DNA from: a virus
Taxonomy: Duplodnaviria > Heunggongvirae > Uroviricota > Caudoviricetes
DNA length: 10,025 bases
Strand: one strand, 5' to 3'
IMG/VR virus record: IMGVR_UViG_2693429733_000018
Shown here in pieces: positions 6,204 through 10,025 of the stretch; position 1 is the first letter of the stretch, and each line of letters begins with the position of its first letter. A program made the position numbers and the translations under genes. The notes beneath the pieces are model-generated. The model made no database searches. It worked only from the letters and a program-made list of their open reading frames with translations, and was not told where the DNA came from.

Positions 6204-6280
6204 CCGCCATTAGCTCATCAGGAAAGAGCGCCAGCCTTCGAAGCTGGCTGCGCGGGGTTCAAGTCCCCGATGGCGGTCCA
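6204..6280 (+). tRNA. argN: tRNA-Arg (anticodon TCG), second copy
   Basis: Identical to 3795-3871. Confidence 0.8.
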
Positions 6281-6293
6281 TTATCTGCATCAT

Positions 6294-6370
6294 GCGTTGT
6301 TAGCTCAGCCGGACAGAGCAATTGCCTTCTAAGCAATCGGTCACTGGTTCGAATCCAGTACAACGCGCCA
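6294..6370 (+). tRNA. argO: tRNA-Arg (anticodon TCT), third copy
   Basis: Identical to 3885-3961. Confidence 0.85.
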
Positions 6371-6384
6371 CACTTATTTTCCCT

Positions 6385-6410
6385 GGCTCGCTTTTGCGGG
6401 CCTTTTTTTT
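6385..6410 (+). terminator. Intrinsic terminator after tRNA cluster C
   Basis: Identical to 3976-4001. Confidence 0.7.
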
Positions 6411-6432
6411 AAATGTCTCACAATTCAGACGG

Positions 6433-6469
6433 TTGACAGTTGTCTGTTTTGCGGGGAGTTTGTTAAAAG
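6433..6469 (+). promoter_or_regulatory. Promoter of module C
   Basis: Identical to 4024-4060. Confidence 0.45.
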
Positions 6470-6607
6470 AAACTGGCATGGTGAATCCCCCTGTGCGGAG
6501 GGGCAATCAGCGAGTAGGTATATGGGATAATCGCGGATTCAGGTGCTGGTACTGAATTCACCGGGAGGCACCCGGCATCATGCAATGGCACATAGCGCCA
6601 CTCTCCA

Positions 6608-6630
6608 GCCCTCTCCGGAGGGGCTTTTCT
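6608..6630 (+). terminator. Module C terminator, weakened (one C lost from the 5' arm gives a bulge; T tract reduced to TTTTCT)
   Basis: GCCCTC-TCCG-GAGGGGC then TTTTCTGTG; compare the perfect hairpin and longer T-rich tail at 4199-4234. Confidence 0.45.
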
Positions 6631-6819
6631 GTGCCGGATACATCACAGTTTCTGGAACCTTAGGTACTACAGTATCAGTCAGGGTGCTATATTTTCAGAT
6701 GTGATGAAAGCCTGTCAGCAGGCAGGGCGTATCGGAAATGACCCAGTAGAGAAAACGTTGACTCAGATACCGGTGCTGAGTTACCGGGAAACCGGCATCA
6801 CATGACCGCTATCCTTCCA

Positions 6820-6846
6820 GGCCCATCCGCTCCGGTGGGCCTTTTT
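6820..6846 (+). terminator. Intrinsic terminator-like hairpin upstream of module D (GGCCCATC...GGTGGGCC followed by T5)
   Basis: Stem of 6-8 bp and a T run read from sequence. Confidence 0.5.
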
Positions 6847-6899
6847 ACTGCAGAAAACAGGTTCCCCGTTAAATGCTATGTTGCTCACAATTCAGTAAG

Positions 6900-6936
6900 T
6901 TGACAGTTGCCTGTCAGACTGGGCATTTGTTAAAAA
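6900..6936 (+). promoter_or_regulatory. Promoter of divergent module D (TTGACA; extended -10 TGtTAAAAA)
   Basis: Same element order as modules A-C with diverged sequence; nearest such promoter upstream of the nanS-p/lysis genes. Confidence 0.4.
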
Positions 6937-7093
6937 AATTTCGCATGGTGAATCCCCCTGAGCGGAGGGGCGACTGGTGACGGTATAATCTCTGATTATC
7001 AAAACGAGAATGACGCGGGTTTAGTGGCACCGGGCTGAACTCACCGGGAGGCACCCGGCACCATGTGCATGATGATACAGATACGCGGCTTTA

Positions 7094-7117
7094 GCCCCTC
7101 TCCGGAGGGGTTTTCTT
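7094..7117 (+). terminator. Module D terminator (GCCCCTC-TCCG-GAGGGG followed by TTTTCTT)
   Basis: Hairpin conserved with modules A-C; shorter T tract. Confidence 0.6.
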
Positions 7118-7130
7118 GTGGGCAAAAAAA

Positions 7131-7152
7131 GCCCGCGCTGGGAGACGCGGGC
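7131..7152 (-). terminator. Minus-strand intrinsic terminator candidate (GCCCGCG-loop-CGCGGGC, followed by T7 on the minus strand)
   Basis: A7 run at 7124-7130 precedes the hairpin on the plus strand, so the T run follows it on the minus strand. Confidence 0.35.
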
Positions 7153-7345
7153 GGCAAGGAATAAACAATAAAACGTGAAGTAATATTTCAGCTGGCGAAT
7201 AATACCCCATAGTAATCACTCTGCGCAACTGCGCGGTCTTTTTCGAATTGCGGGCTGTCGTCTCTCTTCTGCCATTGTCCTGTAACTTCCGGACTTCAGC
7301 CCGCTCCTTATTTTACTCACAATATTATCCCGGCCGGGAGGATTC

Positions 7346-9199
7346 ATGGCATTTAAACACTATGACGTGGTCAGGGCGGCATCGCCGTCAGACCTTGCGA
7401 AACGACTGACACAAAAACTGAAGGAGGGCTGGCAGCCGTTTGGTAGTCCGGTGGCCATAACCCCTTATACCCTGATGCAGGCGATTGCAGCAGAAGGTGA
7501 TGTGGTCGTCAGTGGTGCAACTGAGCCGGAGTGGTACTACGTCATCGTACTGGCCGGGCAATCCAATGCCATGGCTTACGGTGAAGGTCTTCCGCTTCCG
7601 GATTCATACGATGCGCCCCATCCGCGCATTAAGCAACTGGCCCGTCGTAACACAGTGACTCCCGGTGGTGAAGTATGCGTATTTAACGACATCATTCCTG
7701 CTGACCATTGTCTGCATGATGTTCAGGATATGAGTACGATTAACCATCCCCGGGCTGACCTGAGCAAAGGGCAGTACGGCTGTGTCGGACAGGGCTTACA
7801 TATTGCCAAAAAACTGCTTCCGTATATCCCTAATAATGCGGGGATCCTGCTGGTACCATGCTGTCGTGGTGGTTCGGCATTCACCCAGGGCACGGAGGGG
7901 ACATTCAGCGAGTCCACGGGGGCCAGTCAGGATTCGGCTCGCTGGGGAGTGGGTAAGCCGTTATATCAGGATCTGCTTTTCCGCACGAAGGCAGCATTGC
8001 AGAAAAACCCGAAAAACGTTTTGCTGGCGATATGCTGGATGCAGGGGGAATTCGATATGACGAATGCCAGTTACGCCCAGCAGCCAGCAGCATTTCTTGC
8101 AATGGTACAGCAGTTCCGTGCTGACCTTGCCGGGCTGGCGGCGCAGTGTCACGGTGGAAGTCCGGCATCAGTCCCCTGGATTTGTGGCGACACGACATAC
8201 GCGTGGAAACAAGAACACGGTACGCAATATGAAGTGGTATATGGTGCATATAAAGGTAAAGAATCCCAGCAGATTTATTTTGTTCCCTTTATGACCGATG
8301 GTAGCGGAGTTAATACACCGACAAACAACCCGTCAGAAGATCCTGATATTGCCGGGTCTGGTTATTACGGTTCGGCATCCCGAACGAACAAAAACTGGGT
8401 ATCATCAAATCGCCCGACGCATTTCAGCTCATGGGCGCGTCGTGGCATTATTCCCGATCGTATGGCAACTGCTATTCTGAACGTAGCCGGTCGCACCTTA
8501 GCCTTCATTAGTGGTAAGGCACCGGAAATCAAACCCTCGCCCGGCGGCGACACGCCATCGGGGCCGTCTGAAGATGCATCCATACGCACAATCTCCCTGT
8601 TGCCGACAGCCGGAGACGCTGCTGCGCAGGGCTGGAGCATTAAGAATGGCGGAGTTCAGTTGTCAGATGGTGTATTTAAGATCACCAAGCAGAGCAATAA
8701 AGCCTGGTCCCTGACGCGCCCGGTGGATGACGCAGTCTCCCTGCTGACACGGGGTGGCAGACTGAGCTGTAAGTTTCGACTGTCAGGCGCACTGACCACC
8801 AACCAGTTCGGTCTGGGAATTTATCTGTATACCGATGTAGCGTTACCTGACGTCGTGGCGATGACCGGGACTGGTAACCCGTTCCTGATGTCGTTCTTCA
8901 CCCAGACCACAGACGGCAAACTGAATCTGATGCATCACAAGAAAGCAGGAAACACAAAGTTGGGCGAGTTCGGGAATTACAGTAACGACTGGCTGACGCT
9001 GGAGCTGGTGTTCACCGCCGGCAGTGCCACGGTTACTCCGAAACTGAATGGAGTGGCTGGCCCGGCATTCCAGGTCATAAAAGACAGTCTGACACTGGGG
9101 CTGAATGCGCTGACGCTGACGGATATTACCAAAAATGCAGCGTATGGCGTTGAGATAGAAAGTCTGGTGCTGGAGATAAATGCACCGGCATCATCATAA
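7346..9199 (+). CDS. nanS-p: Prophage sialate O-acetylesterase-like protein (NanS-p type): N-terminal DUF1737-like segment, SGNH/SASA esterase domain with GQSN motif, C-terminal domain of unknown function
   Basis: Strong RBS GGGAGGA 5 nt before the ATG; N-terminus MAFKHYDVV and motif VLAGQSNAM match my recollection of NanS-p esterases encoded downstream of stx in lambdoid prophages. Confidence 0.75.
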   Translation: MAFKHYDVVRAASPSDLAKRLTQKLKEGWQPFGSPVAITPYTLMQAIAAEGDVVVSGATEPEWYYVIVLAGQSNAMAYGEGLPLPDSYDAPHPRIKQLARRNTVTPGGEVCVFNDIIPADHCLHDVQDMSTINHPRADLSKGQYGCVGQGLHIAKKLLPYIPNNAGILLVPCCRGGSAFTQGTEGTFSESTGASQDSARWGVGKPLYQDLLFRTKAALQKNPKNVLLAICWMQGEFDMTNASYAQQPAAFLAMVQQFRADLAGLAAQCHGGSPASVPWICGDTTYAWKQEHGTQYEVVYGAYKGKESQQIYFVPFMTDGSGVNTPTNNPSEDPDIAGSGYYGSASRTNKNWVSSNRPTHFSSWARRGIIPDRMATAILNVAGRTLAFISGKAPEIKPSPGGDTPSGPSEDASIRTISLLPTAGDAAAQGWSIKNGGVQLSDGVFKITKQSNKAWSLTRPVDDAVSLLTRGGRLSCKFRLSGALTTNQFGLGIYLYTDVALPDVVAMTGTGNPFLMSFFTQTTDGKLNLMHHKKAGNTKLGEFGNYSNDWLTLELVFTAGSATVTPKLNGVAGPAFQVIKDSLTLGLNALTLTDITKNAAYGVEIESLVLEINAPASS

Positions 9200-9283
9200 A
9201 AAGTGAGCCAGCCAAATGGAAGGTATCGTTAAACTCACCGGTAGTGTCAGTGGGTCGTCTGAGATGCCTGCATGAGTTATCAG

Positions 9284-9314
9284 AGCCATCAGTACTTAAC
9301 TGGTGGCTTTTTTT
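9284..9314 (+). terminator. Intrinsic terminator-like hairpin between nanS-p and the holin (9-bp stem with one G-U, 7-nt loop, T6)
   Basis: AGCCATCAG-TACTTAA-CTGGTGGCT followed by TTTTTT. It lies inside the N-terminal extension of ORF 9272-9565, supporting the internal holin start at 9350. Confidence 0.55.
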
Positions 9315-9349
9315 ATTGTTGTCAGCTTCCGGATAACGGGAGACGGGGT

Positions 9350-9565
9350 ATGTACCAGATGGAAAAAATCACAACAGGTGTGTCATACACCACGTCAGCG
9401 GTGGGAACGGGCTACTGGTTCCTGCAGTTGCTGGACAGGGTTTCCCCGTCTCAGTGGGCGGCAATAGGCGTGCTGGGGAGTCTGCTGTTTGGGCTGCTGA
9501 CATATCTGACTAACCTGTATTTCAAAATCAGAGAGGACCGTCGTAAGGCTGCACGGGGAGAGTAA
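9350..9565 (+). CDS. Class II holin, phage-21 S-type pinholin (71 aa; possible dual start at Met1/Met4)
   Basis: [28 protein letters not shown]...[13 protein letters not shown] resembles my recollection of S21; GGAG-type RBS upstream of 9350; two hydrophobic segments and a charged C-terminus. Confidence 0.8.
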
Positions 9566-9569
9566 TTCA

Positions 9570-9884
9570 ATGACTCAAAACTATGAACTGATTGTGAAAG
9601 GGATCCGCAATTTTGAGAATAAAGTTACGGTAACTTTAGCGTTACGGGACAAAAAACGCTTTGACGGTGAAATTTTTGACCTGGACATCTCGCTGGACCG
9701 TGTTGAAGGTGCCGCGCTGGAGTTTTATGAGGCAGCAGCCAGAAGGAGCATCAGACAGGTCTTCCTGGATGTTGCTGCCGGGTTATGTGAAGGGGACGAG
9801 CTGTTGCCAGAAACGCGCCCCTGTTCAGAGGCGCGGTATACCATAAAAATTAACAGTTCTGATAACTCGATTACGGGTTGTTAG
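9570..9884 (+). CDS. Hypothetical protein between holin and endolysin; YdfR-like (Qin prophage, DUF1327 by recollection), function unknown
   Basis: GGGGAGAG RBS; start 4 nt after the holin stop. Family assignment rests on recalled gene order essQ-ydfR-rrrQ in E. coli K-12 and is not verified. Confidence 0.6.
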   Translation: MTQNYELIVKGIRNFENKVTVTLALRDKKRFDGEIFDLDISLDRVEGAALEFYEAAARRSIRQVFLDVAAGLCEGDELLPETRPCSEARYTIKINSSDNSITGC

Positions 9885-9939
9885 CTTTTTGCAGTTGGCT
9901 TTCCAGTATCTTTCATTGGTAGCATCCTGATAAATATCC

Positions 9940-10025
9940 ATGAGCGCAAAAATCAAATACGGCCTGTCAGCTGCTGTTCTGGCGCTGATTGCAAAATGGC
10001 ATCTGAATCGATCGCAGTTTGGCAT
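9940..10025 (+). CDS. Endolysin N-terminus (partial, runs off the window end), probable SAR-type lysozyme
   Basis: MSAKIKYGLSAAVLALIA... is a hydrophobic Gly/Ala/Leu-rich N-terminus typical of signal-arrest-release endolysins that pair with pinholins; only 28 codons visible. Confidence 0.5.
   Translation, partial: MSAKIKYGLSAAVLALIAKWHLNRSQFG

Follow-up and report, generated by a model that had tools for sequence, protein, structure and literature searches.

The window analysed here, the whole 10,025-nucleotide (nt) stretch of the Caudoviricetes record IMGVR_UViG_2693429733_000018 (IMG/VR), carries a ydfR-family gene between the holin and endolysin genes of a lambdoid prophage. The gene is an open reading frame (ORF) at 9570-9884 on the + strand that starts with ATG, ends with a TAG stop at 9882-9884 and encodes 104 amino acids (aa). 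It follows the TAA stop (9563-9565) of the holin gene S after a gap of 4 nt (TTCA). S encodes a 71-aa class II (phage 21-type) holin at 9350-9565 (+), matches Pfam PF04971 'Bacteriophage P21 holin S' (E=9e-33) and carries the annotation 'class II holin family protein' in E. coli 042, where the locus is 99.9% identical; the start at 9350 is preferred over a longer mechanical ORF from 9272. Direct reading of the sequence places a strong Shine-Dalgarno element, GGGGAGAG, at 9555-9562 (+), its GGAG core preceding the ydfR ATG by 9 nt, and the 3' end of the holin gene contains this ribosome-binding site used by ydfR. Downstream, a 55-nt spacer (9885-9939, +) separates ydfR from the ATG of the endolysin (lysozyme) gene R at 9940, a start backed by RefSeq annotation of both the E. 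coli 042 locus and phage mEp460. The endolysin leader, CCTGATAAATATCCATG, holds no Shine-Dalgarno and no purine-rich element before the ATG and is conserved 5' of the endolysin in BP-4795 and K-12. The R gene itself is represented by a 5' stub of about 18 codons (MSAKIKYGLSAAVLALIA...) at 9940-9992 (+), identical to the 042 and mEp460 gene starts up to about position 9992. The labels pinholin and signal-anchor-release (SAR) endolysin are presumptive in this setting and follow from family membership. The layout given in the original prediction, a 104-aa ORF with a good ribosome-binding site 4 nt past the holin stop and 55 nt before the endolysin, is exact in every element by sequence.

The encoded protein is a virtually certain member of the YdfR/DUF1327 family. 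Residues 1-96 align to positions 1-90 of the 93-position Pfam model DUF1327 (PF07041) with a score of 132.8 bits, the cut-off being 25 (E=5.1e-39), and the PHROG profile phrog_2735 matches with E=3.5e-55. Every matching PHROG family is labelled 'unknown function', no NCBIfam model matched, searches of Pfam, NCBIfam and the PDB returned nothing besides DUF1327, and both single-sequence and profile searches against solved structures gave no matches. Public data hold proteins 100% and 99% identical to the window protein, and all 315 nt of the gene occur at 100% identity in a prophage of E. coli strain 300709. Of 5426 complete E. coli genomes, 4249 (~78%) contain YdfR-like DNA, in up to eight copies each; the window gene represents an already known family and sequence that is ordinary in E. 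coli prophages. Beyond E. coli the family is small: an exhaustive HMMER search over 1.84 billion representatives found only 73 clusters at E<=0.001, named members come from Escherichia, Shigella, Salmonella, Yersinia and Pantoea, and an alignment-based scan of viral contigs gave no confirmed relatives. Homologues at 25-35% identity keep the same hydrophobic pattern, and the ratio of non-synonymous to synonymous substitution rates (dN/dS) of the core against diverged homologues is 0.24-0.44, values that indicate purifying selection on the core. Judged by its sequence, the ORF is a genuine gene far beyond chance. The suspected resemblance to YdfR is thereby borne out by profile search, and the accompanying statement that the function is still uncharacterised agrees with a 2024 review that keeps ydfR on its uncharacterised list (PMC11551758).

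Transcription of ydfR almost certainly depends on the transcript that also carries S and R. The gene order in the window is Q, tRNAs, nanS-p, S, ydfR, R, with ydfR in sense orientation within the late operon. Co-transcription, already proposed for the gene with the lysis genes, is suggested because ydfR lies on the same strand as S and R, is spaced 4 nt from S and has no promoter-like site in a scan of 9150-10025. An Rfam scan of 9200-10025 matched no RNA family and thus gives no evidence of an RNA element replacing or lying inside the ydfR ORF. A weak terminator-like hairpin occupies 9859-9884 and reaches to the end of the ydfR stop, directly upstream of the spacer. A second, GC-rich hairpin at about 9813-9834 (CGCGCC…GGCGCG) was considered as a terminator and rejected: it has no T-run on either strand, was not called by the scan and is treated as coding sequence at a mosaic junction. 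Upstream of the holin, between it and the esterase gene, a strong terminator-like hairpin (12 pairs, then a T-run) lies at 9282-9310, and late transcription toward S, ydfR and R would need to read through it. The GC content of ydfR is 0.473 (0.505 at third codon positions), compared with 0.532 (0.639) for the holin gene and 0.536 (0.557) for nanS-p.

The window protein consists of a conserved N-terminal core and a variable C-terminal tail. The conserved unit comprises the first 72-76 residues, and distant members of 72-76 aa consist of this core alone. Across 31 aligned sequences reaching down to 25% identity, Y53, E54 and A57 are invariant and Y5, L7, V21, G47, L50, A69 and L72 nearly so. An AlphaFold2 (AF2) model places antiparallel strands at residues 5-14, 18-27 and 34-43, followed by a long helix at 50-74, with block means of the predicted local distance difference test (pLDDT) of 76-93 over residues 1-70; an earlier model has the same topology. 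The core is thus predicted to adopt a beta-beta-beta-alpha fold, and the start of its helix carries the Y53-E54-x-x-A57 motif, so that the window protein has both the core and the motif that mark the family. We place the core at residues 1-74 (9570-9791, +) from the model, the alignment, the core-only distant members and dN/dS, and the tail at residues 75-104 (9792-9881, +), where pLDDT is low and the mosaic breakpoint region is spanned. In the AF2 model pLDDT falls below 50 at residues 77-89 and a low-confidence hairpin forms the C-terminal end; the tail is accordingly predicted to be poorly ordered and variable. At least four alternative tails or extensions are found among family C-termini, with protein lengths of 103-287 aa. 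The protein has a mass of 11.7 kDa and an isoelectric point (pI) of 4.85. A hydrophobicity scan found no membrane or signal segment, the highest 19-residue Kyte-Doolittle value being 0.75, and the protein appears to be soluble and cytoplasmic because it is acidic and lacks a hydrophobic segment. One homologue, P0177 (176 aa; locus L011 of our comparison set, 4001-4531), carries two DUF1327 cores in tandem, which suggests that single-core proteins may act as dimers; its neighbours are a DUF4406 gene and an antisense ORF, with a holin and lysozyme pair downstream.

The closest characterised relative is YdfR of the K-12 Qin prophage (b1555, UniProt P76160), which belongs to the same family, follows the class II holin gene essQ after a 4-nt gap and has the same Shine-Dalgarno context. 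Window and K-12 proteins are 65% identical overall and ~82% identical over residues 1-72 (59 of 72 positions). Their C-terminal tails differ, …LSEKVESYLQHQYSFKIENPANKHERPHHKYL in one against …LCEGDELLPETRPCSEARYTIKINSSDNSITGC in the other, and in K-12 the ydfR stop overlaps the start of the lysozyme gene rrrQ, in contrast to the 55-nt spacer of the window. Phage mEp460 is closer still: its gp55, a 'YdfR family protein', differs from the window protein by one residue (K29N) within the same S-ydfR-R layout and with the same spacer. In mEp460 an intact lysozyme gene and Rz follow, whereas the window lysozyme gene is cut by an insertion sequence (IS). In E. coli 042, within a 99.9% identical region, an extra A in the A6 run at 9651-9656 (+; A7 in 042) causes a +1 frameshift and ydfR is annotated as 'frameshifted', which could be a sequencing error. 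A rearranged region with insertion sequences, an interrupted endolysin gene, the frameshifted 042 copy and a poorly conserved tail are what a decaying, functionless remnant in a defective prophage might look like. We consider this explanation very unlikely, as the window ORF is intact and 100% identical to copies elsewhere, phages that can be induced or form plaques, mEp460 and BP-4795 among them, carry ydfR, and the core dN/dS points to continued constraint.

A second group of E. coli alleles is longer. The alleles of Stx2-86 (gp05/gp06), PhiR12_1, PhiR5_1, PhiR63_1, Stx1_499 and phiSTEC1575 share the N-terminal core and the post-holin position with the window, and homology to them runs from the holin to about 9821-9871 before resuming 16 nt upstream of the R start. 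The break falls at 9821 in Stx2-86 and phiSTEC1575 and at 9871 in PhiR12_1. Between these points the long alleles, 114-268 aa in length, carry C-terminal extensions and an antisense ORF of 86-233 aa where the window has 52 nt. In pairwise blastn, window positions 9340-9871 match 2558-3088 of the PhiR12_1 locus (L014) and window positions 9924-9992 match 3600-3668; the 52-nt segment at 9872-9923 (+) thereby stands in place of 511 nt in PhiR12_1 that encode the YdfR C-terminal extension and a convergent antisense ORF. By this comparison the window holds what appears to be a short allele of the cassette, one without the antisense gene.

Comparison with related phages does not support ydfR as a lysis gene and suggests that it has no part in timing by holin and endolysin. 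There are phages without the gene whose holins are 98.6-100% identical to that of the window. In the Stx2a phage VT2phi_272 (holin 98.6% identical) the lysozyme ATG lies 4 nt after the holin stop and behind the same GGGGAGAG element, with the junction reading ...GGGGAGAGTAAGCTGATG(lysozyme). Pairwise blastn homology between the window and VT2phi_272 ends exactly at the holin stop (9565) and picks up again only within lysozyme coding sequence. Phage cdtI likewise has no ydfR, its holin and endolysin genes being directly adjacent. More broadly, a tblastn search (E<=0.001) detected the DUF1327 core in 101 phage records compared with 436 for the holin family, so that at least 335 of the 436 lack it, and in 2 Stx2a-converting records compared with 124; all four counts include many near-duplicate genomes and show presence/absence polymorphism rather than frequency. 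Distant homologues also lie outside lysis cassettes altogether, between tail genes M and L (L004, L007, L024-L026) or I and J (L010, L023), and in L005, L011 and L021 they are flanked by Q and a holin gene of an unrelated family. The original prediction had read a role in lysis timing or regulation from the position of the gene, a reading that its absence or frameshift in close relatives and its homologues at other sites do not sustain. It had itself pointed to absence or disruption of the ORF in closely related phages as counter-evidence, and this is the pattern seen, with ydfR missing from VT2phi_272 and cdtI and frameshifted in 042. A position between S and R should consequently not count as evidence of a lysis function, and we regard the gene as part of an accessory cassette that is likely dispensable for lysis.

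Known regulators of phage lysis include the antiholin isoform of S21, T4 RI and RIII, P1 LydB and the endolysin regulators of Mu. Like these, YdfR is encoded in or next to a lysis cassette, and it is small like T4 RIII. Unlike them, it has no membrane, SAR or periplasmic segment, shows no homology to a known regulator and is unlinked from lysis genes in its distant homologues; steady co-occurrence with lysis genes is also lacking given the record counts and the homologues among tail genes. An action of YdfR on the pinholin or SAR endolysin, for instance as a cytoplasmic antiholin cofactor that tunes timing, would nevertheless accommodate several observations. In all 12 E. coli arrangements examined, ydfR lies 3-4 nt behind a class II holin gene and before a lysozyme gene, the holin-ydfR pair persists in phiSTEC1575 beside different downstream lysis genes, and three distant homologues lie just upstream of holin genes. 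The Keio ydfR mutant was moreover scored in an envelope-integrity screen with chlorophenol red-β-D-galactopyranoside (CPRG; PMC3879167 supplements). Because ydfR overlaps rrrQ in the K-12 layout, however, we suspect that this phenotype reflects polarity of the resistance cassette on the overlapping lysozyme gene. Lysis cassettes with the same holin work without YdfR, the 042 copy is frameshifted, homologues reside between tail genes and overexpression in K-12 caused no growth defect (PMC13232886), which together make a regulatory role in lysis quite improbable.

Insertion of ydfR exchanges the translation signals of the endolysin gene. The arrangement GGGGAGAG-TAA-N4-ATG precedes R in VT2phi_272 and ydfR in the window, BP-4795 and K-12, while the R leader in ydfR-bearing arrangements is CCTGATAAATATCCATG, which has no purine-rich element. 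Endolysin genes without ydfR thus use the holin-embedded GGGGAGAG and those with ydfR the CCTGATAAATATCC leader, so that cassette insertion would change the translation signals of R. The same Shine-Dalgarno-free leader, CCTGATAAATATCC-ATG, is shared downstream of ydfR between window positions 9924-9939 and positions 2205-2220 of L018. These features could mean that the insertion serves as a translational spacer which takes over the Shine-Dalgarno of R and lowers or re-times endolysin synthesis, the protein itself mattering little, and the overlap of the K-12 ydfR stop with the rrrQ start (ATGA) would permit coupling. The core is conserved as a protein down to 25-35% identity in Yersinia and Pantoea and is under purifying selection, though, and no coupling geometry is conserved, ydfR and R being anywhere from -4 to about 510 nt apart. 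Homologues in tail operons cannot serve such a purpose. We therefore judge a spacer role to be distinctly unlikely.

Outside E. coli, DUF1327 genes are found in a portable cassette with a convergent partner. In 19 of 19 non-E. coli loci (L003-L012, L021-L026) the DUF1327 gene is followed on the opposite strand by a small convergent ORF of 70-186 aa. One hairpin terminator of the cassette lies between the two genes and another beyond the antisense gene. In Yersinia enterocolitica prophages a ~720-bp cassette, consisting of a DUF1327 gene and a convergent ORF of ~100 aa (phrog_25324), is found in near-identical form at the I/J and M/L junctions, and a Pantoea copy lies between Q and a different holin (4975-5722 in L023, L024 and L025; 4990-5783 in L021). 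TTAATTAA forms the left border of the cassette, and a GCCCAC…GTGGGC-T6 hairpin just before the ATG of the downstream gene forms the right one. For the Yersinia protein P0188 (72 aa) and its convergent 99-aa partner, which occupy the I/J junction in one prophage and M/L in others, the cassette DNA is near-identical from the TTAATTAA motif to the ATG of the downstream gene. A consensus scan found no promoter for the Yersinia antisense gene, and two terminators flank it. Among the E. coli arrangements examined, 6 of 12 have an antisense ORF between S and R. It is annotated in Stx2-86, PhiR12_1, PhiR5_1 and phiSTEC1575 and unannotated in PhiR63_1 (86 aa; L030 2000-2260, -) and Stx1_499 (233 aa; L029 2041-2742, -), where it lies between ydfR and the lysozyme gene and overlaps the 3' end of the long ydfR alleles. 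The window groups with the arrangements without an antisense gene, namely those of mEp460, 042, BP-4795, YYZ-2008, HannyBb and K-12. An antisense ORF in the window at 9825-10025 (66 aa) was considered as a remnant partner and rejected, as it starts in IS/lysozyme sequence and has no homologue in the partner families.

This association could indicate that DUF1327 acts jointly with the convergent gene, for instance by neutralising or regulating a moron product expressed from the prophage, or its RNA, in lytic growth; the window copy would then be an orphan whose partner was deleted. In favour of this, the two genes travel jointly, terminators included, several phages have a ydfR gene whose 3' end reaches into the antisense ORF, and the association of K-12 YdfR with RNase E and RNA would fit the handling of convergent transcripts. 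The antisense ORFs, however, fall into at least seven unrelated PHROG families (25324, 10490, 1853, 2572, 2411, 18578 and 6806), all of unknown function, which argues against a specific protein-protein pair. Comparisons of the antisense partners with Pfam and PDB gave sub-threshold noise only, and none matched a defence-system or toxin model. Since the solo copies of the window, mEp460, BP-4795, YYZ-2008 and K-12 are also intact and under purifying selection, a dedicated role alongside the antisense product seems unlikely.

In lambdoid phages, the morons described by Hendrix and colleagues are accessory genes inserted between conserved late genes. The ydfR cassette resembles them in its exact-boundary presence or absence, its deviating base composition and its occurrence at several late-operon junctions. 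The Yersinia cassette is moron-like in a further respect, its antisense gene being followed by its own terminator with a + strand terminator-like hairpin at the right end. In contrast to morons, ydfR is sense-oriented, has no detectable promoter and apparently depends on late read-through, and the classical self-contained appearance belongs to the antisense neighbour only. Taken together, these features suggest that ydfR was inserted as a moron-like accessory and does not belong to the core lysis genes.

Phage modulators of RNase E and the degradosome include T4 Srd, the T7 gp0.7 kinase and phiKZ Dip, and RraA and RraB are host inhibitors. T4 Srd binds the N-terminal half of RNase E, as YdfR would do if results for the K-12 protein carry over to the window. 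The only experimental functional study of YdfR concerns this K-12 protein (RNA Biol 2026; PMC13232886). A bacterial two-hybrid screen that used RNase G (Rng) as bait yielded a fragment spanning its residues 1-72, which in follow-up experiments reacted more strongly with RNase E constructs than with RNase G (PMC13232886). FLAG-tagged Rne 1-598 co-eluted with Strep-YdfR, and DNase-resistant nucleic acid co-purified with K-12 YdfR (PMC13232886). The interacting part coincides with the conserved core that the window protein largely shares. Overexpression of ydfR has also been associated with a 3-fold increase in the streptomycin minimum inhibitory concentration (PMC12924614).

On this basis we propose, with a probability of about 0.45, that YdfR is a late, soluble accessory protein encoded on a portable cassette, whose core docks on the catalytic half of RNase E. 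In this view a lambdoid prophage would have acquired a ydfR cassette precisely at the boundary of its holin and endolysin genes. The gene would then belong to the late, Q-antiterminated transcript of S and R, as its orientation, spacing and lack of a promoter-like site imply. Translation would start from the strong GGGGAGAG in the 3' end of S, which from the sequences appears to drive the endolysin in cassette-free phages. The product is predicted to fold into a beta-beta-beta-alpha core (1-74) with a dispensable variable tail, and, by extension from the K-12 Qin orthologue, the core may bind host RNase E at its catalytic N-terminal half, perhaps together with RNA. An adjustment of RNA turnover in late lytic growth could be the outcome, the most speculative step of the series. 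That RNase E binding is what matters for the window protein is, taken by itself, a tentative proposal to which we give clearly less than even chances.

Several points weigh against this proposal. The RNase E data come from one study that used overexpression and two-hybrid assays. In that study full-length K-12 YdfR was positive only with Rne 1-597, the authors were unable to rule out a contaminant as the RNA binder, and overexpression of ydfR, which left growth unaffected, changed few transcripts (PMC13232886). A protein with a pI of 4.85 is not an obvious RNA binder, and fold searches gave no support for any activity. In addition, ydfR alone falls short of the classical moron definition because it has no detectable promoter of its own (0 promoter-like sites) and only the weak terminator-like hairpin at 9859-9884. 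Finally, the tight holin-ydfR linkage, seen in 12 of 12 E. coli arrangements and kept in the phiSTEC1575 pair, could reflect a holin-related role.

A different host target is conceivable as well. YdfR might be a host-takeover or anti-defence factor, a small acidic inhibitor of a host or rival-phage protein other than RNase E. Its size and charge would suit such a role. Searches for a fold or structural match to a known inhibitor, including defence-system models, returned nothing informative, and a PADLOC scan of YdfR and eight antisense partners gave nothing meaningful, its best hit (E=7.8e-4) being to a candidate-system model and concerning one antisense ORF. With neither PADLOC nor structural matches linking the protein to anti-phage defence or anti-defence, we consider an inhibitor of this kind improbable.

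A bolder version of the RNase E proposal, which we think rather unlikely, takes DUF1327 as the constant sense half of a mobile two-gene cassette that occupies the S/R, Q/S, M/L and I/J junctions, with an interchangeable convergent antisense gene as its other half, and as an RNase E-docking factor for RNA decay. Decay would then be managed around the convergent unit or over the whole late transcript, and the window would hold a solo copy. If true, this would make DUF1327 a new class of phage RNase E modulator. Should the RNase E link as such be confirmed during induction, temperate lambdoid phages would join the known manipulators of host RNA decay, and a function would be available for a gene present in ~78% of complete E. 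coli genomes. A portable family with a variable antisense partner at several late-operon junctions is of specialist interest in any case. For the window itself the importance is small, since it holds a database-identical, very common prophage ORF in a defective prophage.

The lysis cassette of the window prophage is disrupted downstream of ydfR. Homology of the lysozyme gene to intact genes stops at about 9988-9993, some 18 codons into the gene, and the left end of an insertion sequence starts there (9993-10025, +); the exact lysozyme/IS junction is ambiguous within 9988-9993. This loss of lysozyme homology after ~18 codons together with the IS end indicates the disruption. The last ~33 nt of the window are a multi-copy sequence with as many as 35 occurrences in one genome, distributed over chromosomes and plasmids, and match sequence that, in another genome, precedes an istA gene of the IS21 family by ~200 nt. 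By this adjacency to istA we assign the interrupting element putatively to the IS21 family.

Upstream of the lysis genes, the late regulatory region of the window (1-7350) is segmentally duplicated, with direct repeats at spacings of 2409 nt and 2534 nt. The C-terminal part of a Q antiterminator is present in two copies (51-452 and 1600-2040). One tRNA cluster with Met-CAT and Arg-TCT lies at 555-807, and clusters with Met-CAT, Arg-TCG and Arg-TCT lie at 3712-3961 and 6121-6370. Four copies of the STnc100 small RNA family (Rfam) are found at 1504-1693, 4038-4227, 6447-6636 and 6914-7123, scoring 124-161 bits against a gathering score of 47. There is one copy per duplicated segment, the last just upstream of an intact nanS-p-like esterase gene, and the copies probably mark the late-promoter leader region. 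An IS3-family transposase ORF with rve and HTH_21 domains occupies 5019-5837 (-). Abutting it, a truncated DUF1737 N-terminus at 4834-5022 duplicates, in broken form, the beginning of the SASA/NanS-p-like esterase gene at 7346-9199, which encodes 617 aa.

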